DNA from: an uncultured bacterium
Lineage (GTDB): Bacteria > Patescibacteriota > Minisyncoccia > Phycocordibacterales > GWA1-40-21
Length of the DNA stretch: 64,000 nt
Assembly (NCBI GenBank): GCA_963798465.1
Contig: CAWCTC010000001.1
Coordinates: 132,315 to 196,314 of the forward strand
Direction of reading: 5' to 3'
Shown: one piece after another, positions 1,828-47,073 of the stretch
Numbering within the stretch: position 1 is the stretch's first letter
Layout: the number at the start of each line of letters is the position of its first letter
Made by a program: the position numbers and the translations under genes
The notes under the pieces: generated by a model
The model's database searches: none
The model's input: the letters and a program-made list of their open reading frames with translations, nothing else
What the model was told of the DNA's origin: nothing

Positions 1828-2679
1828 TCAAATCAGTTTTTTTATCAACTCTTTCCAGTCTTCAAGCTTCAAGTCTTCCGAACGGGCTTTTTCCGGTATT
1901 TTAAGCTCATGGAATATTTTCTGCAGGTCATTTTTGCCGAATTTTTCTTTCAGATTGACTATTAGCATCTTTCTTTTGTGTGCAAAACCAGCTTTTATGA
2001 CTTCAAAGAATTTTTCCTCGGTGATTTCCTTGCTTGCCACGAGAGCTTTAGCTTTTTCGTGGCTTGCCACGAGGTCAGCAGACTTTTCGTGGAAAAAATC
2101 CTTAGAAATATTGTCTACAAGTAAAATTGCAGAATCAACTTTTGGTGCAGGGCTGAAGTTTTCTTTCTCAACTTTCATTATTTTCTTGGGAATTCCATAG
2201 GCTTTTACTGACAAAGAAAGCAAACTTTCCTTTAAATCTCTGGCGATTATCCTGTCAGCTATCTCTTTTTGCACCATTATTACCAGTTTTTTCGGCTGGA
2301 TGCTTCCGGAAAGGAATTTTCTGAAAATCAGACCTGTAATATAGTATGGAATGTTGGCTATCAACTTATAATCCACAGTTTTAAAACCAAGTTTTTCCAA
2401 ATCTAATTCTAAAATATCGCCATGAATAAGGCTAAATTGACCGTTTTGGATTTCAGACGCGAATTTCTCTTTTAAGTATTCGATGAGTCGGTCGTCTTTT
2501 TCCACAGCGATGACTTTTGCCTCAGTTTCAAGAATTTTTTCAGTCAAAGCTCCCTGCCCTGGCCCGATTTCGAGAACCCGGTCATTTGAATTAATTTCCC
2601 CAGCTTTTATCATCGCCAAAAGAGCAGTTTTTGATTTCAAAAAGTTCTGACCGAGCGATTTTTTTGCATGTATTTCCAT
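1828..2679 (-). CDS. rsmA: 16S rRNA (adenine1518/1519-N6)-dimethyltransferase
   Basis: KSLGQNFL and EIGPGQGALT SAM-binding motifs typical of KsgA/RsmA. Ends in TGA. Confidence 0.9.
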   Translation of the reverse strand: MEIHAKKSLGQNFLKSKTALLAMIKAGEINSNDRVLEIGPGQGALTEKILETEAKVIAVEKDDRLIEYLKEKFASEIQNGQFSLIHGDILELDLEKLGFKTVDYKLIANIPYYITGLIFRKFLSGSIQPKKLVIMVQKEIADRIIARDLKESLLSLSVKAYGIPKKIMKVEKENFSPAPKVDSAILLVDNISKDFFHEKSADLVASHEKAKALVASKEITEEKFFEVIKAGFAHKRKMLIVNLKEKFGKNDLQKIFHELKIPEKARSEDLKLEDWKELIKKLI

Positions 2680-2682
2680 AAT

Positions 2683-3390
2683 TTAGAGGCAAGGCCTCTC
2701 AGTTGTTATTCCTCCAATTCCTTTTGTTGTTCCTTCTGTCTCATTAACTCACCCAATGAATCAGAAAGGAATTTTTTATAAGAATTTTTGCTATTAAATT
2801 GTTCAAGTATTATAGACTTATCACAAATACCGTTTAAATCCTTAGTATATTCATCTAAACTTGAGAATACTTTATCTGTATTTATCTTATGTATTTTATC
2901 ATTTAGATTTACATAAGCACTTAAATATAGCAAATATTCATTATCTTTTATATATTTCGCCTTAAATTTACCTTGGAATAATGATCCAGTTCTTTTTTCT
3001 TTATTATTAAAATATAAAGTATAGCCAGTTCCAAGTCTTTGCATAAATTGTGATATTCCGTTATCAGAAATCTGTTTTACTATTAAATGAAAATGATTTT
3101 GATTTAGACAATATGCAATTATTTCAACAAGACGATTTTGATTTTGAGTATTTTGTAATTTTTTATTTTCTAAAAAAGATTTCGAATATAAACCGCCAAA
3201 AGTTTGTTCAGTATTTAATTCAATAATACTTTCTAAAAACCTCTCATAATCATCATTTTTACCAAATATAATCCTCTTATCAATACCACGATTATATATG
3301 TGATATATTTCATTATTAATAAATGGCACTTTTCTAGAACTCATATTGTAAATATTAACAAAATTAAAACTTAGAGGCAAGGCCTCTAAG
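2683..3390 (-). mobile_element. IS200/RAYT-like single-gene unit bracketed by identical hairpin repeats
   Basis: TTAGAGGCAAGGCCTCT (stem AGAGGC/GCCTCT) occurs at 2683-2700 and 3371-3390. The two copies flank the Y1 transposase-like gene exactly, between the uvrD stop and the ksgA start. Confidence 0.5.
2706..3344 (-). CDS. HUH-Y1 transposase-like protein (IS200-like / REP-associated tyrosine transposase family)
   Basis: YHIYNRG, an HUH motif (NHFHLIV), GSLFQGKFK, and a C-terminal Tyr region (EYLLYLSAYVNLN). Start moved to the internal MSSRK because the longer ORF overlaps the uvrD 3' end. Confidence 0.65.
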   Translation of the reverse strand: MSSRKVPFINNEIYHIYNRGIDKRIIFGKNDDYERFLESIIELNTEQTFGGLYSKSFLENKKLQNTQNQNRLVEIIAYCLNQNHFHLIVKQISDNGISQFMQRLGTGYTLYFNNKEKRTGSLFQGKFKAKYIKDNEYLLYLSAYVNLNDKIHKINTDKVFSSLDEYTKDLNGICDKSIILEQFNSKNSYKKFLSDSLGELMRQKEQQKELEE

Positions 3391-5385
3391 TTACCATTCA
3401 AGGTACACGATTTTCTCCCGATATTCAAATTTTTCTTCTTCCAAAAAGCCATTGTCGAATTCCCCAAGAAAAATTGATGGAAGATTCATCTGCATCGAAC
3501 CGAAAATCGTTCTCATTTCTGCATAAGTCATAAATAATTTTTTTCTTGCGCGCGTGACAGCGACATAAAATAATCTCCTCTCCTCCTCCATTTCTTCCGG
3601 AGTTTTTTCTGCACCGCTCATTCCTTGGTGCGGAAATAAATCTTGTTCAAGTCCGGTAATGAAAACATAATCGAATTCCAAACCTTTTGAAGCATGCACT
3701 GTCATCAGCTTCACCGCATTTTCATTTTTTTCTAATGTATCTTGATCCGAAGCAAGCGAACATTCTTCCAAAAGTTTTTCTACGCCTTCAAGTTTTGGCA
3801 AGTGATCGTATTTGATTGCGAGAGTTGCAAGCTCGCGCATGTTTTCCAATCTTTCTTTATCTTCGTCTCCGCCTTTTTGCAATTCGAGTTCAATTCCCGA
3901 TTCGCGAATTATAAATCGAATTACTTCAGATGGTTTTATACTTTCAGCTTCTTTCTTGATTCTCAAAAGCAAATTGAAAAAAGTATTTACTTTTTCTTTC
4001 ACACCGAGCGGAAGTTCATCTTTTTTTCCTTCAAATATTTTTAATATCGTGACTTTGCCGATTCCTCTTGCCGGAACATTTATAATTCTTTTTATATCAG
4101 ACAAACTTTCCGGATTCAAACTCGCGCGAAGAAAAGCCAGAATATCTTTTACTTCTTTTCTTTCAAAAAATTTTGTTCCAAGGACTTGGTACGGAACATT
4201 TTCTGTGAGAAATGCTTCTTCGAGAACGCGCGATTGAAAATTTGCGCGGTAAAGCACTGCAATTTCTCTCGGACTTGCTCCGTTTGCAATCAATTCTTGC
4301 GATTTTCTGGCTATAAATCTAGCTTCTTCAGTTTCATTTAAAGCCTTAAAAAATGAGACTTTTTCGCCTTCGGCGTTCTTTGTAAAGAGATTTTTTTCAC
4401 GTCTCAATTTATTATTTTTTATTACTTCATTTGCGACGGCGAGAATAGTTTGTGTCGAGCGATAATTTTGTTCAAGCAGAATTATTTTTGCTTCCGGATA
4501 ATCTTCTTCGAAACTCAAAATATTTTGAATGTCTGCACCGCGCCAGCTGTAAATACTTTGATCGATATCTCCTACCACGCAGATATTCCTATTTTTTGCA
4601 GCTAAAAGTTTTGCTGTCATATATTGGACTTTGTTTGTATCTTGGTATTCATCAATATGAATGTATTTCCAAAGATTCTGATATATTTCTAAAACTTCCG
4701 GATGATTTTTTAAAATATTGTAAGTTTTCAAAAGTAAATCATCGAAATCAAGAGCTTTTTCCTGTGCAAGTTTTTTTTCATACATTGGCCAGACTTTTCC
4801 GACGACTGCTTGCAGAGTGTATCCATTTTTATCTGAACCAGCAGAATATTCTTCCACGGAAACTAAATTACCTTTTTCCCTTGAAATAATATTCAAGATT
4901 TTGCTCGGTTCAAATTGTTTTGGATCTATATCCAAACTTTTCAAGCAATCTTTCACAAGTTTTGAAGAGTCGCTCCTGTCCATGATGCTGAAATTTCTCG
5001 TGAGGCCGATGAGCCGAGCGTTTTCTTTAAGAATATGAACGCCGAGAGAATGAAATGTGCTGATGAATGGTTTGTGATTGTAACTTACGGGAAAATTCAA
5101 ACTTTTCTCTTCAGAAATAATTTTCTCAACTCTTTCGCGCATTTCTTTTGAAGCTTTGTTCGTAAATGTGATAGCCAATATGCTTTCGGGACTTACTCCT
5201 TCTTTTATTAAATGTAAGATTCTGTGAGAAATCGTCTTAGTCTTTCCAGCTCCTGCTCCGGCGATTATTAAGATCGGTCCGTCTTTTTGTAAAACAGCTT
5301 CTTTTTGTTGTTCGTTTAGTCCTTCCAGATGAGTCATCGAATAAACCCGCTCACCTACTTTATTATTTTGATGATTATTATCCAT
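3391..5385 (-). CDS. uvrD: ATP-dependent DNA helicase, UvrD/PcrA/Rep family
   Basis: Walker A motif AGAGAGKTKT, DEYQDTN, and YRSTQ helicase motifs. 664 aa, intact. Confidence 0.9.
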   Translation of the reverse strand: MDNNHQNNKVGERVYSMTHLEGLNEQQKEAVLQKDGPILIIAGAGAGKTKTISHRILHLIKEGVSPESILAITFTNKASKEMRERVEKIISEEKSLNFPVSYNHKPFISTFHSLGVHILKENARLIGLTRNFSIMDRSDSSKLVKDCLKSLDIDPKQFEPSKILNIISREKGNLVSVEEYSAGSDKNGYTLQAVVGKVWPMYEKKLAQEKALDFDDLLLKTYNILKNHPEVLEIYQNLWKYIHIDEYQDTNKVQYMTAKLLAAKNRNICVVGDIDQSIYSWRGADIQNILSFEEDYPEAKIILLEQNYRSTQTILAVANEVIKNNKLRREKNLFTKNAEGEKVSFFKALNETEEARFIARKSQELIANGASPREIAVLYRANFQSRVLEEAFLTENVPYQVLGTKFFERKEVKDILAFLRASLNPESLSDIKRIINVPARGIGKVTILKIFEGKKDELPLGVKEKVNTFFNLLLRIKKEAESIKPSEVIRFIIRESGIELELQKGGDEDKERLENMRELATLAIKYDHLPKLEGVEKLLEECSLASDQDTLEKNENAVKLMTVHASKGLEFDYVFITGLEQDLFPHQGMSGAEKTPEEMEEERRLFYVAVTRARKKLFMTYAEMRTIFGSMQMNLPSIFLGEFDNGFLEEEKFEYREKIVYLEW

Positions 5386-16183: not shown

Positions 16184-16600
16184 GTTATGTCCTTTACATA
16201 ATTTCTATAGGACATATAATGATATCGGAAAATAGTTTTGATGATATAGACAAGGAATAGTATGCAACTGCTTTCCATGTCCTCCTTTTCATCATAACAA
16301 AAGTATGTTCTTTCAATGAAAGTCTAGCTAACTTTCGAAAAATCAAATAGAAATTGTTTGGTAAAAAGATTATATCTTTCCCATCCTTAAAAATTACATC
16401 ATTTATATATATTATAAAAAGTAATTAAAGGAGTATAAAATTTTTACGAGATATTATCTAATTTGTAGCCGCTCAAAAATATCGCTCAGGTATTTGGAGC
16501 GGTTTTTTATTGGAAAATAAAGAGCGAAGCGACTATATTTCCCTGTATCCTGTAAATACTCGCTGAATTTATGTATTTACAGGGTTATTTCCATACGATA

Positions 16601-17290: not shown

Positions 17291-17489
17291 GTTTTACCCA
17301 AAAAGTGTTTATTTTAAAGCCTAAATTTTTGAATATAATTCCATTTTTTATAAATTATGTTGTGATGTGTCTGATAAAAAATTGAGAGTGTCTTTGAAAA
17401 AAATTCAAAAAACTATGGAAATAATTTTTGAAATGCGAACGAAGGGGAACACAATAATTTGTAATTTGGGTCCCACCCCAAATTACAAA

Positions 17490-17679
17490 TACGGAAAACG
17501 CGCCGAGATCGCTTCGCTTATCTTCCATTACATGGACGGTATACCTTTCGTATTTTTTTACATGAGTACATGTTAAAAAATATACTCAAGGTTTTTCGAT
17601 TCCCGGACGCAAGCAAAATTGTTTGCTTGCTCACTCGCACAAATGAAAAACACTCAGAATTCTGAGTGTTTTTCATTTG
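17490..17679 (-). other. tRNA-like trailer module behind tRNA-Gly(GCC)
   Basis: 56-nt perfect palindrome at 17632-17687 that includes the acceptor 3' strand. On the minus strand it is followed by TGCGAGTG, a 9-bp hairpin, CCGGGAATCGAA (complement of the T-arm 3' half), a long A/T hairpin, ATAC, and a TGTAA-loop hairpin. Confidence 0.45.
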
Positions 17680-17750
17680 TGCGAGTGCCGGGAATCGAAC
17701 CCGGGCCCAATCCTTGGCAAGGACTAGTTCTACCATTAAACCACACTCGC
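17680..17750 (-). tRNA. tRNA-Gly (anticodon GCC)
   Basis: Manual cloverleaf: acceptor GCGAGTG/CACTCGC, anticodon loop TTGCCAA, T-arm CCGGG-TTCGATT-CCCGG. No encoded CCA. Confidence 0.9.
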
Positions 17751-17898: not shown

Positions 17899-18342
17899 AT
17901 GAAAAAATGTTCAAAGTGTAAAAAAGAAAAATCAGATGATGAATTTAATTTTAAAAATAAAGGTTTAAAATTACGACAGTGTCAGTGTAAAGAATGTACT
18001 AGATTATTAATAAAAAATCATTATAATGAGAATAAACAGTATTATTTTAGTAAAGCTAAAAAAAGAAATTTAGAAATTAAAACAAACATTGTTAAATATT
18101 TACAAAATTACTTATCAAATAAGTCATGTATTGATTGTGGAGAGTCAGATATTGCAGTTCTTGAATTTGATCACACAAATCGATCAAAAAAATTTAAAGC
18201 TGTTTCAACTCTCATAAGATGTGGTTACCCAATGGAGGTAATACTGGAGGAAATAAGTAAATGTGATATTAGATGTGCGAACTGTCATAGGAGAAAGACG
18301 TCAAAAGATTTTAAATGGCTTAAAACAATAATGCCCCTGTAG
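17899..18342 (+). CDS. HNH (His-Me finger) endonuclease
   Basis: CxxC pairs, LEFDH, and CANCHRRKT motif. The last 10 nt overlap the 5' end of tRNA-Arg. Confidence 0.7.
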   Translation: MKKCSKCKKEKSDDEFNFKNKGLKLRQCQCKECTRLLIKNHYNENKQYYFSKAKKRNLEIKTNIVKYLQNYLSNKSCIDCGESDIAVLEFDHTNRSKKFKAVSTLIRCGYPMEVILEEISKCDIRCANCHRRKTSKDFKWLKTIMPL

Positions 18343-18404
18343 CTCAACGGATAGAGTACTGGTCTTCGAAACCAGTGGTGAAGGTTCAATTCCTTCCAGG
18401 GGTA
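18333..18404 (+). tRNA. tRNA-Arg (anticodon TCG)
   Basis: Acceptor GCCCCTG/CAGGGGT, anticodon stem CTGGT/ACCAG with loop CTTCGAA, T-arm GAAGG-TTCAATT-CCTTC. Confidence 0.9.
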
Positions 18405-18447
18405 CAAAAAGTTTATTATATTTAGTTATTTTGATATAATTCAAACA

Positions 18448-21628: not shown

Positions 21629-21836
21629 CAAAAACTAAAATAACCTTCAATTGAAGGTTATTTTAGTTTTTGTCGGAGTGTTCAAAGTGCTGGGAGCACT
21701 TTGAAAGGGATTCGAAGCCCGATTGTGTATTTTTTACAAGTTTAATAACGAAGTAAAAAATCCAATCGGGATACTGGTCGTGTAACGACCGAAATTCCCG
21801 GCAAATCTGGATTGGAAGTTTCGAAACTCCCGGCGA
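21629..21836 (+). other. tRNA-like trailer module behind tRNA-Pro
   Basis: 60-nt perfect palindrome at 21621-21680 that incorporates the acceptor strand. It is followed by CGGAGTG, a hairpin with loop TGGGA, GGGATTCGAA, a long hairpin CCCGATTG...CAATCGGG, ATAC, the hairpin GGTCG-TGTAA-CGACC, and GAAATTCCCGGCA. Confidence 0.45.
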
Positions 21837-23106: not shown

Positions 23107-23308
23107 CAAATGAAATAACCAACTTTTTTAAGTTGGTTATTTCATTTGTCGAGGCAAGCGAACAAACTGCTTTGTTCGTGTGGGTGAATCGAAAGACTTT
23201 TCCATATGAGCGAAGCGAAGCAGAAAAGTACCTGGCTACGTCGTAGCAGATTCACCCTGCCCGCACAAATGAAAAATCACTCAGTTTTCTGAGTGATTTT
23301 TCATTTTG
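23107..23308 (+). other. tRNA-like trailer module behind tRNA-Gly(TCC)
   Basis: Hairpin at 23107-23148. GGGTGAATC (23182-23190) pairs with GATTCACCC (23249-23257), enclosing GAAAGAC and two hairpins. The module ends with a direct repeat of the tRNA 3' end (23249-23265) followed by a second hairpin (23266-23308). Confidence 0.5.
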
Positions 23309-32001: not shown

Positions 32002-32205
32002 CAAATTTTTTATAAAAATTTGGGCAGCTTAAGGAAGCACCTGCGTGCTTTCGTGTTGGAATCGAAAGACTTTTCCTTATCGAATGAGCAAAGCGAAATG
32101 AGATGGAAAAGTACCTGGCTATGTAGTAGCCGATTCCAACTCAAGCGCACAACGCAAGCAATTAAAAATCGCCGGTTATCTATAAGGCGATTTTTTCTTG
32201 CGTTG
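32002..32205 (+). other. tRNA-like trailer module behind tRNA-Lys
   Basis: Hairpin at 32002-32022. GCAGCTTAAG resembles the acceptor 5' strand. GTTGGAATC (32055-32063) pairs with GATTCCAAC (32132-32140), enclosing GAAAGAC, the ACTTTTCC/GGAAAAGT hairpin and the GGCTA-TGTAG-TAGCC hairpin. The module ends TCAAGCGCA (32141-32149) and is followed by a hairpin at 32150-32205. Confidence 0.5.
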
Positions 32206-39957: not shown

Positions 39958-40010
39958 ATTTTTCATTTTCCTAACCCTAAAGGATAAGGAAAATATATTC
40001 GCTTCGCTCA

Positions 40011-40580
40011 TTATTTTCCTAAAATTTTCAGTGCCGCCTTTATTCTGTCTCCAGTTTTTGTAATTGTTTTTTCTACATCGCGAAGTGCATCACGTGCATC
40101 TTTCGGATTGTAGCCGAGAGCTTTCAAAGCTTCGATTGCGTCTATTTCATCGCGAAGTGAAATATCATTTTCATCACCTGATATGCCGACCTTATCTTTT
40201 AGCTCGAGCACCATTTTGTCTGCAATCTTTTTTCCAATTCCTGAAACTTTTGTAAGATGGGAAGTGTCGCCGGTTGAAATTGCTCGCTTGAGTGCTGGAA
40301 CAGAACTGATGTTCAAAACATTTACGGCAGTTTTCGGACCGATTCCAGAAATAGAAATTATCATTTCAAAAAATTGCAATTCTTCTTCTGAAAGAAATCC
40401 ATAAAGATCGAGTGCGTCTTCTCTGACGACTAAATGAGTGAACAAGGAAATCTTTTCTCCTTTTTGCGCGACTTCTTTTGTTTCTGCTGTCGTGTAAATT
40501 TTAAAACCGATTCCGCCGACTCCGACAGTTAGAAATTTAACATTTGTGTCCCAAACTATACCTTCTATTTTTGATATCAT
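40011..40580 (-). CDS. ruvA: Holliday junction DNA helicase subunit RuvA
   Basis: MISKIEGIV..., two HhH motifs (ISGIGPKTA and VSGIGKKIA), and C-terminal domain III. Confidence 0.9.
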   Translation of the reverse strand: MISKIEGIVWDTNVKFLTVGVGGIGFKIYTTAETKEVAQKGEKISLFTHLVVREDALDLYGFLSEEELQFFEMIISISGIGPKTAVNVLNISSVPALKRAISTGDTSHLTKVSGIGKKIADKMVLELKDKVGISGDENDISLRDEIDAIEALKALGYNPKDARDALRDVEKTITKTGDRIKAALKILGK

Positions 40581-41511: not shown

Positions 41512-41761
41512 TTCTGCACCTCCAATTTTTTGTAAAACATCATTCTTACCTATTATAGCATTAATTACGTTAATGTCAAGAGTAGTAAAAATAACACATA
41601 TTCAAGGGTGTTTTTAATTGTACTGTGGTCAGGAATAATTTTCTCGTCGTCACTCGAAAATTTTCACTACCCTGACTCGTTTGTTTTGCTTGCTAGCAAA
41701 ACATAACTCCGTCTCGCACATGTATCAAAAAACACGAAGCAGTTCGTGTTTTTCTATCATG

Positions 41762-44056: not shown

Positions 44057-45808
44057 ATGAATAATTATTCAGTCAGACCGGAATTAAGCGAAAAAATAAA
44101 TAAAGAATTGGAAAAATATCCGGAAATTTTGCGCAAGCTTTTATATTATCGAGGAATAAAGATGGAAAAAGGAGCCGAAAGTTTTTTGAATCCGATTTTT
44201 GAAGAAAACAACGACCCATTTGAAATGTTCGGAATGGAAATTGCAGTGGAAAGGATTTTTCAGGCGATTGAAAATAAAGAAAAAATAATAATTTACAGTG
44301 ATTATGATGCAGACGGAATTCCTGGCGCGGTAGTTCTTCACGATTTCTTTAAAAAAATCGGCTATGACAATTTTGAAAATTATATTCCGCACAGGGTTCT
44401 TGAAGGTTTCGGATTGAACGATGAAGCAATCGATGAGTTTGCAAAAAATAAAGTTAATTTGATAATCACAGTGGATTGCGGAATCGCCGATGTCGAGGAA
44501 GCGAAAAAAATAAAAAAATATAAGATAGATTTGATAATAACGGATCATCACTTGCCGAGAATTGATTCGAAAGGAAAAGAAGAATTGCCAAAAGCGTTTG
44601 CAATACTTGATTCGAAACAATCAGGATGCAATTATCCAGACAAAAATCTTTGTGGAGCTGGTGTAGCTTTTAAACTTGTCCAAGCTTTGATTTCTAGAAT
44701 TAATACTTTTGACTTTAAAGACTTTCGACTTGATGGACTAACTCCCGGCTGGGAAAAATGGCTTCTCGATATGGTCGCGATTGCAACGATTTCAGATATG
44801 GTTCCGCTTGTAGGAGAAAATAGATTGCTCGCTTATTTTGGCCTAAAAGTTTTGAGAAAATCTCCGCGTCCAGGTTTGCAAAAACTTCTTTCAATAATAA
44901 AAGTTGATCAAAGAAATATTACCGAGGACGACATAGGTTTTATGATTTCTCCGAGAATAAATGCCGCTTCAAGAATGGGAATTCCGGAGGACGCTTTTAA
45001 TATGCTTGTAACAAAAGATGATAATGAAGCGCTAAAATATGCATTTCATTTGAATAAAATAAACGACGAGAGAAAAGGAATCGTCGCAGAAATGGTCAAA
45101 GAAATTAGAAAACATTGGAATAAAATTGACCCGGAGAAAAAAAGAAAAGTTTTGGTCGCGGGAAATCCGGATTGGAAGCCGTCGCTTCTCGGTCTTGTTG
45201 CGAATTCTCTTTTGGACGAACATGACGGACCGATTTTTCTTTGGGGCAGAGAAGAAGGAAAAACTTTGAAAGGTTCTTGCCGTTCTGACGGTTGCGTTGA
45301 TATTGTCGCGATGATGCGAGAAGCTTCAGATTTGTTTGACGAATATGGCGGACATTCTGCTTCGGGAGGTTTTTCTATTTCTCTTGAAAAAGTTGATTTG
45401 CTTGCCGACGGGCTTGAAGCTTCATATCAAAAAGTTTGTGTGAGCGGAAGCAATAAAAAAGAATTAATCGCTGACATTTCAATAAATATCGATGATGTAA
45501 ATAATAATTTGGAAAAAGAAATCAGCATACTCGCGCCGTTTGGAATGGATAATCCGAAGCCGATTTTCTTGTTTAAAAATATTGAAATATTTGATACAAA
45601 AATTTTTGGAAAGAAAAATAATCACTTGAAGATAGATTTTGCAAATAAAAAAGGACAAAAAATTTCCGCAATCGCATTTTTCAAAAAACCGGAAGATTTT
45701 CCCGTGAAAATCGAAAAGGGAGAAAAAATAAATTTGTTGGCGAATATTGAAAAGAGTTTTTTTGCTGGGAGAGAAGAATTGAGATTGAGAATTGTTGATA
45801 TAGTTTAA
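44057..45808 (+). CDS. recJ: single-stranded-DNA-specific exonuclease RecJ
   Basis: DHH motifs (DYDADGI and ITDHH) and a DHHA1 region (GGHSASGG). 583 aa, intact. Confidence 0.9.
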   Translation: MNNYSVRPELSEKINKELEKYPEILRKLLYYRGIKMEKGAESFLNPIFEENNDPFEMFGMEIAVERIFQAIENKEKIIIYSDYDADGIPGAVVLHDFFKKIGYDNFENYIPHRVLEGFGLNDEAIDEFAKNKVNLIITVDCGIADVEEAKKIKKYKIDLIITDHHLPRIDSKGKEELPKAFAILDSKQSGCNYPDKNLCGAGVAFKLVQALISRINTFDFKDFRLDGLTPGWEKWLLDMVAIATISDMVPLVGENRLLAYFGLKVLRKSPRPGLQKLLSIIKVDQRNITEDDIGFMISPRINAASRMGIPEDAFNMLVTKDDNEALKYAFHLNKINDERKGIVAEMVKEIRKHWNKIDPEKKRKVLVAGNPDWKPSLLGLVANSLLDEHDGPIFLWGREEGKTLKGSCRSDGCVDIVAMMREASDLFDEYGGHSASGGFSISLEKVDLLADGLEASYQKVCVSGSNKKELIADISINIDDVNNNLEKEISILAPFGMDNPKPIFLFKNIEIFDTKIFGKKNNHLKIDFANKKGQKISAIAFFKKPEDFPVKIEKGEKINLLANIEKSFFAGREELRLRIVDIV

Positions 45809-45871
45809 ATATGTTTTTGCTTGCGATTTCGGTAATTTTGGGGTAAATTAGTCTTTGTTCGACAAATAAAT

Positions 45872-45958
45872 GGAAGAGTGGCTGAGTGGTTTAAAGCACC
45901 AGTCTTGAAAACTGGAGGGCTCGCAAGGGTCCCGTGAGTTCGAATCTCACCTCTTCCG
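45872..45958 (+). tRNA. tRNA-Ser (anticodon TGA)
   Basis: Acceptor GGAAGAG/CTCTTCC, anticodon loop CTTGAAA, long variable arm, T-arm GTGAG-TTCGAAT-CTCAC, discriminator G. Confidence 0.9.
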
Positions 45959-46135
45959 CAACGACAAATAAAAACAGCCTGGGAAGGCTGTTTTTATTTT
46001 GGCGTCATGGATGAAAGGTGAGATTCGAAAGACGGAGCCGACACGAACGATAGTGAATGAATCGGCGAGTCGGGGTCGCAAGTTCTTATGAGCGAAGCGA
46101 ATTAGAAACTTGGACCGAATCTCACCTCTTCCGCA
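45959..46135 (+). other. tRNA-like trailer module behind tRNA-Ser
   Basis: Hairpin AAATAAAAACAGCC...GGCTGTTTTTATTT. GGTGAGATTC (46017-46026) pairs with GAATCTCACC (46117-46126), enclosing GAAAGAC and hairpins that include a GAGCGAAGCGAA cap. A perfect 19-nt direct repeat of the tRNA 3' end lies at 46117-46135. Confidence 0.5.
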
Positions 46136-46161
46136 AAATAATTTTATGGTAAAATAAAAAG

Positions 46162-46719
46162 ATGATAGCAATAATTACAGCATGGATTTTAGTCGGACTA
46201 TATTGGATTTTAATGTCTTTTAAAAATAAGACATCGACAGAGAGCGAGTCTTCTTTTTCTAGAATATTGTTCTTAGGAATAATGACATTTTCTTTTTATT
46301 TATTATTCTCTGAAAGTTTTCTAGTGCAATTTGGATTGAGTAATTATATTTTTACTTCTTCATTATTGCTTTATTGCGTTGGATTTATGATTGCCTTTAT
46401 AGGTTTAGCTTTTGCAGTCTATTCAAGATATTACATCGGGAAAAATTGGAGTGGACGAATTGAAATAAAAAAAGATCATAAATTATTGACAACAGGACCT
46501 TATGGAATTACAAGACATCCGATTTACACAGGGCTTTTGCTCGGAATTATAGGAACCATATTGATATACAATCAACCAAAAGGATTACTGGCTCTGCTTT
46601 TTATATTTTGTGCATTTTCATTTAAAATAAATAAAGAGGAAAAATTTCTCCTAAAACAATTTCCAGAATACGCGACTTATATGAAAAAAGTAAAAAGGAT
46701 AATTCCTTTTGTTTACTAA
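46162..46719 (+). CDS. isoprenylcysteine carboxyl / phospholipid methyltransferase family membrane protein
   Basis: Multi-TM protein with the ITRHPIYTGLLLG motif. Confidence 0.7.
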   Translation: MIAIITAWILVGLYWILMSFKNKTSTESESSFSRILFLGIMTFSFYLLFSESFLVQFGLSNYIFTSSLLLYCVGFMIAFIGLAFAVYSRYYIGKNWSGRIEIKKDHKLLTTGPYGITRHPIYTGLLLGIIGTILIYNQPKGLLALLFIFCAFSFKINKEEKFLLKQFPEYATYMKKVKRIIPFVY

Positions 46720-46911
46720 TAGACATTATCCTTTTTAGTTCGCATGATGAAATGCATTGTTATAATAATATAAAAATTATTCTAATAACTTCATAGGCCT
46801 TGTTGTCAAAAAGTTTTGATACGAGTATTTCCGCATTTGTAAAATTTACTACAAAAAAGTATGGTATAATTACAAAAGTCGGGATATTTAATTAACTCAA
46901 TTCAAAAAATT

Positions 46912-47073
46912 ATGATGATAAGAGGAAATTTTATTGGTGCGGCGATTGTTGCAATAATTTACACGGTTTATATTTTAATAAAACCTTTTCCGCAGAAATG
47001 GCAGATGGCGTTGATATTGGTGATTCTCAATGCTTTGACAATCGTATTGTTGTATTTTGCATTCAAAGTCTAA
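46912..47073 (+). CDS. hypothetical 53-aa two-TM peptide
   Basis: Preceded by TGGTATAAT. Hydrophobic sequence. Below the ORF-track cutoff. Confidence 0.3.
   Translation: MMIRGNFIGAAIVAIIYTVYILIKPFPQKWQMALILVILNALTIVLLYFAFKV

Follow-up and report, generated by a model that had tools for sequence, protein, structure and literature searches.

A candidate structured-RNA module behind tRNA-Ser(TGA) and its relatives trailing tRNA genes of Patescibacteria

The tRNA-Ser(TGA) gene and its tail

In the 64,000-nt stretch of DNA that was analysed (hereafter, the window), an intact forward-strand tRNA-Ser(TGA) gene (45872..45959; called by ARAGORN and scoring 64.4 bits with the Rfam tRNA model) lies between a RecJ gene (44057-45808) and a gene of the ICMT family of methyltransferases (46162-46719; Pfam ICMT/PEMT), and the space between the tRNA and the latter is largely taken up by an arrangement of tRNA-derived sequences on the same strand, in which the portion of the tRNA that is copied corresponds to positions 54-76 plus CA. 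The initial annotation had described a perfect 19-nt direct repeat of the tRNA 3' end, and GAATCTCACCTCTTCCGCA does occur exactly twice in the window (45942-45960 and 46117-46135; 0 occurrences expected from shuffles), yet reading the sequence directly extends this repeat by one base on either side to the 21 nt of CGAATCTCACCTCTTCCGCAA, so that the copy within the tRNA (S, 45941..45961, running from C56 to N73 and then CAA) is matched by a second copy (S', 46116..46136) whose end is, as had been noted, separated from the ATG at 46162 by 26 nt.

Between the two copies lies an antisense arm, GGATGAAAGGTGAGATTCGAA (A, 46009..46029, forward strand), within which GGTGAGATTC (46017-46026) is, just as the annotation stated, the exact complement of the first 10 nt of the noted 19-nt repeat and can pair with 46117-46126 of S' (helix P1). 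This complementarity reaches 11 nt with G46027 and is further extended by A46028-A46029, which are complementary to T54 and T55 of the real tRNA-Ser only, the stretch 46017-46029 being an exact reverse complement of tRNA positions 54-66. The remainder of the arm (46009-46016), which corresponds to the acceptor, is degenerate, and the proposed pairing of GGATGA (46009-46014) with TCTTCC, although it exists, is imperfect, consisting of five pairs with one U-U mismatch and an AA bulge. The enclosed segment does open with GAAAGAC (46027-46033), and the cap that was said to be common to this copy and the one behind tRNA-Gly(TCC), TATGAGCGAAGCGAAT (46087-46102), is indeed found in the latter at 23205-23220 with 1 mismatch; scanning for it with up to 3 mismatches gave 7 matches vs. 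0.86 expected.

Sound as this earlier description of the module is, it omits a 45-nt terminator-like hairpin situated between the tRNA and the module (45961..46005, forward strand), which consists of an A-tract, a GC stem and a U-tract, is folded by RNAfold into an extended stem whose GC core, AACAGCC/GGCUGUU, precedes UUUAUUUU, and escapes a simple terminator scan because its T-run (U-run) pairs with the A-tract. The same kind of scan found no terminator-like site downstream of the module, in agreement with the annotation. As a terminator-like hairpin precedes the module and a search for a promoter belonging to it found none, expression of the module is assumed to occur by read-through.

A folding energy of -47.9 kcal/mol (z = -4.35) is predicted for the 133-nt module, both strands being about equal in folding stability when this copy is taken singly. 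ARAGORN and the Rfam tRNA model called no tRNA in 45961-46136, the sole call at the locus being the real one at 45872-45959, and the only open reading frame across the unit (antisense, 45947-46171) was rejected as a gene because it has no Pfam match and overlaps covarying stems. As an independent Logan assembly (L150) matches 45894-46948 at 100% identity, the module is not an assembly artefact of its own contig.

An insertion/deletion polymorphism with ends in the tRNA-tail repeat

RecJ assigns the window to Candidatus Paceibacterota. Three contigs from three different samples (L006, L007 and L008), whose RecJ is 95% identical to that of the window, carry the same tRNA-Ser (97% identity over 118 nt) without the module, the flank directly behind the tRNA being AGAATAATGG / AGAATAATGGTACAATTAC, and the class-C covariance model described below (R1) found no match in any of the three. 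When the window is aligned to L006 by blastn, 46116-46142 (that is, from the beginning of S') aligns to 2920-2946 of L006, and homology picks up again at 46861. These breakpoints delimit a unit of 175 bp (45961..46135 or, equivalently, 45941-46115, forward strand), inclusive of the terminator-like hairpin, which is absent from the L006 empty site, so the unit is present or absent as a whole with its ends inside the 21-nt tRNA-tail repeat, i.e., it is an insertion/deletion polymorphism. That it was gained, by recombination, can be inferred from a single empty site, and repeat-mediated deletion (loss) would look alike. Other relatives show yet other states at the same tRNA-Ser: a terminator only (L009), a different core together with a remnant of a third core (L003 and L004), or an island with a large serine recombinase adjoining the tRNA (L010).

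The methyltransferase gene downstream is a second, separate indel, and its extended -10 element, TGGTAAAAT (46147..46155, forward strand), lies outside the module and is homologous to the promoter found directly behind the module-less tRNA-Ser of L006. The idea that processing at the module generates the 5' end of the methyltransferase mRNA consequently finds no support in the comparison, the gene being an independent indel furnished with an ancestral promoter of its own.

Fold and covariation of the class-C core

Enclosed between the antisense arm and S' is an 87-nt core (46030..46116, forward strand; A-GAC..GUC-GG-GGUC..GACC), made up of a stem with a bulged G and tandem G-A pairs (P2, 46031-46071), a junction GG (46072-46073) and a second stem capped by the shared cap sequence (P3, 46074-46116). 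Cores of this kind, here designated class C, are defined as A-GAC-G-GA[stem]GA-GUC-GG-GGUCG[stem]YGUGACC and occur on the tRNA strand with a helix directly on their 5' side. The Ser copy conforms to this definition, scoring 79.7 bits with model R1, of which it is, however, itself a seed member, and deviates from the family in having a bulged G46078 where a G-U pair is otherwise seen. A copy outside the seed alignment, behind tRNA-Val in L003, has the same architecture and scores 90 bits.

The Ser module and those behind tRNA-Gly(TCC) and tRNA-Lys are alike in their scaffold, their GAAAGAC start and their cap; this is, however, where the likeness ends, the cores of the latter two belonging to another structural class (11-13 bits with the class-C model vs. 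79.7 for the Ser copy).

Covariation was tested on a 45-sequence alignment under a P1/P2/P3 model. Of the cells, 86% were paired vs. 73% in shuffles, and the covariation score was 0.343 vs. 0.153, neither value being reached by any of 500 shuffles (0/500 in both cases), whereas slid controls of the model were only 28-42% paired. The inner pairs of P2 and P3 vary between GC, CG, AU and UA, and the sequences of these two stems differ completely between class-C copies, while the G-U pair of P3 is conserved in 41/41 sequences and the antisense arms stay paired through G-U pairs (including in L031, as read by eye). In 118 of the 119 cores, the tRNA strand gave a stabler fold than the reverse complement (-29.8 vs. 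-20.9 kcal/mol, among the matches listed). What the core forms on the tRNA strand is an RNA structure that covaries and is specific to that strand, although strand bias and covariation would also be expected if the hairpins acted as single-stranded DNA.

It should be kept in mind that the 21 seemingly invariant columns of the alignment were fixed by the very search pattern used to collect the sequences. This caveat is met by three independent lines of support: the score of the L003 Val copy; the pair L143 and L148, in which a deletion within P2 leaves a stem re-formed; and the Arg(GCG) orthologues found in the window and in L002, which have kept the junction with both P2 and P3 wholly replaced. 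The window copy of the latter pair (41616-41728) shows that the core tolerates changes. Tandem G-A motifs recur in class-C cores as judged by eye; a K-turn was considered for them and rejected, the 3-nt bulge being absent and the tandem G-A pairs lying inside regular helices.

Other tails of the window and the family across Patescibacteria

Tails are found behind 6 of the 7 tRNAs of the window. A second class-C core, without S', lies behind tRNA-Arg(GCG) (41616..41728, reverse strand; 36 bits with model R1, E = 3.4e-10), where the adjoining helix is the terminator hairpin of the tRNA plus GTGCG; its orthologue in L002 scores 49 bits. Intact class-A modules, i.e., another core on the same scaffold, trail tRNA-Gly(TCC) (approximately 23149..23266, forward strand, with a terminator on each side) and tRNA-Lys(TTT) (approximately 32020..32152, forward strand), and degenerate class-B tails are present behind tRNA-Gly(GCC) (approximately 17430..17678, reverse strand, no S') and tRNA-Pro(TGG) (approximately 21630..21790, forward strand). 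In the case of tRNA-Gly(GCC), direct reading of the sequence shows that the acceptor and the terminator form a perfect 56-nt palindrome. The scaffold, which unrelated other cores occupy in place of class C behind other tRNAs, has a recurrent order: the tRNA is followed by a hairpin, a copy of the acceptor 5' strand, often a covarying hairpin, the T-stem 5' strand together with the T-loop antisense, the core and, finally, tRNA positions 56-76 plus CA.

An exact-pattern scan of species genomes for the class-C junction returned at least 120 loci, all of those listed being from Patescibacteria. Among the matches listed, 74 of 123 cores lie no more than 400 nt downstream of a same-strand tRNA (30 anticodons are represented), and every one of the 78 cores with a tRNA within 400 nt is co-oriented with it, 74 following the tRNA and 4 preceding it; the core starts a median of 65 nt (IQR 63-68) after the tRNA ends. 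Within the fetched loci, copies of tRNA tails are found downstream of 34% of the tRNAs and upstream of only 1%. A scan of metagenomes for the Ser-type junction added 19 further tRNA-Ser tails, none of which resembles the Ser copy closely.

Family members are quite variable in their tRNA-derived parts (among the matches listed, the sense copy is 4-22 nt and the arm 5-24 nt long), the usual minimum being some 8-11 bp over the T-loop and T-stem, and many copies have no acceptor antisense or no acceptor part of S'. Classes may also be stacked in tandem (C then A/B 13 times, A/B then C 5 times, D then C 2 times), and the outer repeat of one such tandem, in L064, is the more degenerate one when read by eye.

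No protein gene travels with class-C cores: none of the neighbouring ORF families occurs at more than 8 of the 120 listed loci, the recurrent ones are housekeeping genes only, and a serine recombinase family is found at 3/120. The next ORF is on the same strand in 38 of 64 cases and convergent in the other 26 (among the matches listed). The class-C pattern had no match in viral contigs, and BLAST of the Ser unit against phage and plasmid records gave none either; the sole viral-contig match of a first pattern (L001) lies inside a coding sequence with no tRNA and is therefore taken as a chance one.

Helix layouts and pairing registers

The helix that precedes the core is provided in three ways. 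In layout a, to which the Ser copy belongs, the antisense arm pairs with the downstream sense copy; in layout b (L071, L083, L085), seen in 5' partial tRNA copies in front of tRNAs, a local hairpin of the TTGAA...TTCAA type is placed right before AGAC; and in layout c, represented by Arg(GCG), the terminator hairpin plus 5 nt of acceptor antisense abuts AGAC, and there is no sense copy. What is common to all three is a helix immediately 5' of the core.

The arm of layout a is able to pair with either copy of the tail. In the minimum-energy fold of the whole read-through transcript (-111.3 kcal/mol), the arm pairs with the tRNA's own tail and S' closes the tRNA body, and a comparison of whether the arm follows the tRNA's own tail or the downstream copy came out even (8 vs. 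7, with misregistered boundaries confounding the count).

The annotation's view that the module is a separate unit, belongs to a repeated family and is delimited by a second copy of the tRNA 3' end holds, and so does the T-arm-derived helix, which covaries with tRNA identity across many tRNAs. The acceptor-like extension fares worse: it is weakly conserved, the outer three columns of P1 (1-3) being unpaired in 17-21 of 39 sequences and the outer P1 columns pairing in approximately 50-75%. Often, too, the helix runs on through N73-CA, where that of a tRNA would stop; in the predicted helix of the 31 intact copies, N73 and the two bases that follow it are paired in 65%, 55% and 45%, respectively.

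Interpretation and alternatives

The best explanation of the locus as a whole, which we would put at slightly better than even (a probability of about 0.55), is that of a co-transcribed structured-RNA insertion module belonging to a phylum-wide Patescibacteria family that trails tRNA genes. Such a unit would comprise, in order, a terminator-like hairpin, the antisense of the tRNA T-loop, T-stem and acceptor 3' strand, the 87-nt core (two hairpins predicted to be joined by fixed junction nucleotides) and the sense copy of the tail, and would be transcribed from the tRNA promoter by terminator read-through. The antisense arm would then anneal to the sense copy or, alternatively, to the 3' end of the tRNA itself, providing the helix presumably needed 5' of the core: pairing with S' would give a closed three-way junction beside an intact tRNA, and pairing with the tRNA's own tail would leave the spare tail to close the tRNA body. 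The sense repeat may further serve as a handle for entry and exit by homologous or microhomology recombination, by which a single-copy tRNA would remain undamaged, and a crossover within the repeat would leave the displaced tail at full length, with the native flank behind it, as is the case at the Ser locus. The tRNA would thereby be supplied with a new terminator, and the core would be the selected part of the unit, most likely (and this is a guess) a cis-acting RNA-processing element for read-through tRNA transcripts that is either ribozyme-like or RNase-recruiting. As to how an arm came to match tRNAs of 30 anticodons, templated copy-back at the terminator palindrome and guide-like retargeting are the candidates.

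The ribozyme-like option just mentioned could be taken further, the core being viewed as a new class of small self-cleaving ribozyme that would cut read-through tRNA transcripts and have the tRNA-derived helix as its variable closing stem. Some 30 conserved junction nucleotides amid freely varying stems would suit such a ribozyme, as would the circular permutations (closed by a local hairpin in L071, L083 and L085, or open-ended), the interchangeability of at least three unrelated cores that occur in one context and are stacked in tandem, and the failure to find a protein partner near the 120 listed loci; hammerhead, twister, pistol and hatchet ribozymes co-occur in a resembling manner. No Rfam ribozyme matches, however, a hammerhead core is not mappable by eye (classes A/B and C contain GAAA and no CUGAUGA), and no conserved candidate cleavage dinucleotide was identified, and this reading is held to be unlikely. 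Rather unlikely, too, is the notion that the tails are self-propagating, RNA-programmed elements, in which the arm would be a retargetable guide for the T-loop/3' end of a tRNA gene or transcript and the A/B, C and D cores, as new ribozymes or as folds that recruit effectors, would be responsible for cleavage or insertion; nearly every tRNA gene of a Patescibacteria genome would then have been colonised and yet left intact. A tRNA-like minihelix cut by RNase P or RNase Z, which would punctuate the transcript and yield the methyltransferase mRNA 5' end, agrees with the “mini-tRNA” layout of many members (acceptor-strand copy, covarying hairpin and T-stem copy, the hairpin being placed exactly at the acceptor/T-stem boundary), with the inclusion of N73 and CA in S' and with the co-orientation of modules and tRNAs. 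It is nonetheless an improbable one, as conservation of the acceptor helix is poor and its pairing frequently extends through N73-CA, many copies lack the acceptor antisense or the acceptor part of S', the Ser copy itself has a mismatched and bulged acceptor helix and no boundary hairpin, the downstream gene is convergent in 26/64 cases (among the matches listed), and the methyltransferase gene, itself a separate indel, has an extended -10 that is ancestral.

An insert that restores its tRNA and has a direct repeat of the tRNA 3' end on either side is the classic signature of tRNA-targeting integrative elements, and the insertion at the Ser locus, so flanked and with its tRNA restored, could be seen as a decayed footprint (attL/attR plus an arm) of an integrase-driven element that had targeted the tRNA-Ser 3' end and subsequently lost its genes, all the more so given the serial accumulation of units with older outer copies and the serine recombinase island next to tRNA-Ser in L010. 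Quite improbable is nevertheless the grade this deserves: the 175-bp unit contains no ORF (the antisense one having no Pfam match), recombinases are not enriched near the 120 listed loci, phage and plasmid matches are nil, att sites have neither an antisense arm nor a fixed 65-nt spacing, and a core that covaries strand-specifically is found phylum-wide behind tRNAs of 30 anticodons (among the matches listed). Equally doubtful is that the hairpins act as single-stranded DNA (in the manner of REP/BIME, integron attC or IS200/IS605 ends), being substrates of a trans-acting HUH or tyrosine recombinase that would insert the unit next to them. The core does lie immediately 3' of a hairpin in all three layouts, top-strand specificity and stem covariation are equally expected of folded single-stranded DNA sites, and the centre of the cap is GCGAAGC, a very stable DNA mini-hairpin; on the other side stand the co-orientation of 78/78 cores with tRNA transcription (among the matches listed), the conserved G-U pair of P3 (41/41) and recurrent tandem G-A motifs, typical of RNA, and the failure to see any linkage to HUH or tyrosine recombinases near the 120 listed loci. 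As for a chance duplication or non-functional rearrangement with no selected function (a fold-back/tandem-inversion duplication at a terminator palindrome), fold-back template switching does yield a sense, antisense, sense order around a palindromic terminator, and tRNA-Gly(GCC) offers a perfect 56-nt palindrome; such an event, however, gives no account of a conserved core between the arms at no fewer than 120 loci, of covariation or of fixed spacing, and, already contradicted by this family-level conservation, it is left with next to no weight.

Comparison with known systems

Rfam 15 covariance models run over 45850-46200 with E-values of up to 10 gave no match overlapping the core, sub-threshold matches at the Ser locus being confined to the tRNA 3' end, the hairpin and the antisense arm. 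At gathering scores, only tRNAs were matched window-wide, and the class A and B copies gave hairpin-type sub-threshold matches only, a T-box over the Gly(GCC) tail being rejected at 21.6 bits vs. a gathering score of 93. No description of these tRNA tails was found in Rfam 15 or by a full-text literature search. Group I introns of Patescibacteria tRNAs are located in the anticodon loop (PMC13011429), and TIGR-Tas, which occurs in CPR bacteria and uses dual-strand guides, was rejected as an identity of the tails, as its 36-nt array units, CCA/UG boxes and Nop-domain proteins do not fit (PMC12045711).

With tRNA-targeting integrative elements (prophages, ICEs and those of the CIME type), the Ser unit shares flanking repeats of the tRNA 3' end (21 nt here, with the empty site seen in L006-L008), a restored tRNA, strain-variable presence and serial accumulation. 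The recombinase that defines such elements, within or consistently adjacent, is missing from the Ser unit, which is a mere 175 bp long, and an integrase is neither present in cis nor enriched nearby; the tail units, in turn, contain the target in antisense as well as a fold conserved at the RNA level, and stand behind most tRNAs of a genome with no phage or plasmid counterpart. MITEs, Correia elements, RPEs and REP/BIME are likewise short and ORF-less, with inverted arms, flanking direct repeats and many intergenic copies per genome, but the tail copies are old, divergent and carry compensatory changes instead of being near-identical, their arms are target-derived and locus-specific, and they are strictly tied to tRNA 3' ends and to one orientation; in terms of what defines a MITE, P2 and P3 differ between copies, and the length of the repeat ranges from 4 to 22 nt. 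The superficially similar shape of retron ncRNAs is not accompanied by a recurrent neighbouring ORF family at the 120 listed loci (the families not being individually annotated).

R2 retrotransposons and their ORF-less derivatives reside in rRNA genes, co-oriented with the host gene. They resemble the tail units in being located in or at a highly transcribed stable-RNA gene, with which both, given this co-orientation, are presumably co-transcribed, and in having a structured RNA that borrows host-gene sequence for a helix; the tail units, however, have no linked reverse transcriptase, leave the host gene intact through the duplicated tail and possess a core unrelated to HDV-like ribozymes (no Rfam match). 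Small ribozymes (hammerhead, twister, pistol and hatchet) are of a size similar to that of the tail cores and share with them conserved junctions amid variable stems, circular permutation, several unrelated folds per genetic context and no linked protein, whereas the cores match none of them in sequence or structure and are, unlike any of those classes, systematically paired with tRNA tails. Finally, viral TLS, the tRNA-like domain of tmRNA, mascRNA, plant tRNA-snoRNA precursors and E. coli 3'ETS-leuZ have either acceptor/T-arm geometry or the habit of riding on a tRNA transcript in common with the tails. In the latter, unlike in those RNAs, a large domain takes the place of the T-loop, which is itself paired; an acceptor helix may or may not be present, the sequence derives from the tRNA next to it, and the unit as a whole is an indel. 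Because each of these closest analogues fails a defining feature, the family is rated a new kind of tRNA-linked structured RNA element, of which the Ser copy is a clean member with a well-documented polymorphism.

Patescibacteria, which are poorly understood and whose genomes are tiny, account for much of bacterial diversity. Should a conserved, tRNA-matched structured RNA accompany most of their single-copy tRNA genes, this would amount to either an unknown layer of tRNA-transcript handling or a protein-free genetic element residing on tRNA genes. Several unrelated cores on one scaffold, together with circular permutation, make up a pattern that has earlier led to new ribozyme classes, and, on account of this ribozyme-like pattern, the family offers concrete, short candidates for in vitro tests. 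There is also a more mundane side to the matter, namely, that the tails mimic the repeats of att sites and could, during routine annotation, be miscalled as prophage or island boundaries.

Orientation of the cores and 3′ ends of the tRNA genes

Among the matches listed, all of the cores having a tRNA gene at a distance of at most 400 nt (78/78) were co-oriented with that tRNA, and the only stable-RNA gene found on the strand opposite to a nearby core was the 5S rRNA gene of comparison locus L015. Just past the 3′ end of this gene, on the opposite strand, lie class-B and class-C units (approximately 3450-3900), the flanks of which carry antisense 5S fragments.

Each of the seven tRNA genes of the window terminates in N73-CA(A/C), not in CCA. 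The sole tRNA gene within the window that is not trailed by a structured unit, or tail, is tRNA-Arg(TCG) (18333-18405), approximately 40 nt past which a CCA-adding-enzyme-like ORF begins.

Gene content around the tRNA-Ser module

The ICMT/PEMT-family methyltransferase gene following the module behind tRNA-Ser(TGA) represents an indel (46137-46860) in comparison with the related loci L006-L008, and its boundaries are marked by a duplicated extended -10 element, found as TGGTAAAAT at 46147-46155 on one side and as TGGTATAAT at approximately 46868-46876 on the other. It looks like a gene cassette bringing its own promoter. Between RecJ and tRNA-Ser, an ORF of 92-95 aa is seen in L006 (2460-2738), as well as in L007, L008 and a further relative, L009, and is missing from the window. 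In yet another related genome, L010, the same interval between RecJ and tRNA-Ser is occupied by a conventional island (2174-5108) with genes for a large serine recombinase, a ParB-like protein and a zinc-ribbon protein.

Hairpins, a palindrome and class-C variants

The cap motif GAGCGAAGCGA of the module helix P3, consisting of tandem G-A pairs around GC-GAA-GC, also caps two stand-alone intergenic hairpins of the window (16519-16534, plus strand; 39997-40012, minus strand). Downstream of tRNA-Gly(GCC), a hairpin, AATTTGGGGTGGGACCCAAATT (approximately 17470-17500, minus strand), closely resembles GAAATTGGGATGGGACCCAATTTC, the local hairpin preceding the permuted class-C cores of L020, L023 and L068, and a perfect 56-nt palindrome (within 17630-17750, minus strand) comprises the tRNA-Gly(GCC) acceptor 3′ strand, N73-CA, a terminator and the next acceptor-5′ copy.

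In other genomes, a class-C core is interrupted between its P2 and P3 helices by another structured module of a different kind (L131 and L145, approximately 4830-4990), and a recurrent 14-nt insert, GAA(A/C)(G/A)TGTACTCAC, separates the core, ending in GTGACC, from the sense copy of the tRNA tail in L012, L022, L030, L052, L064 and L106.
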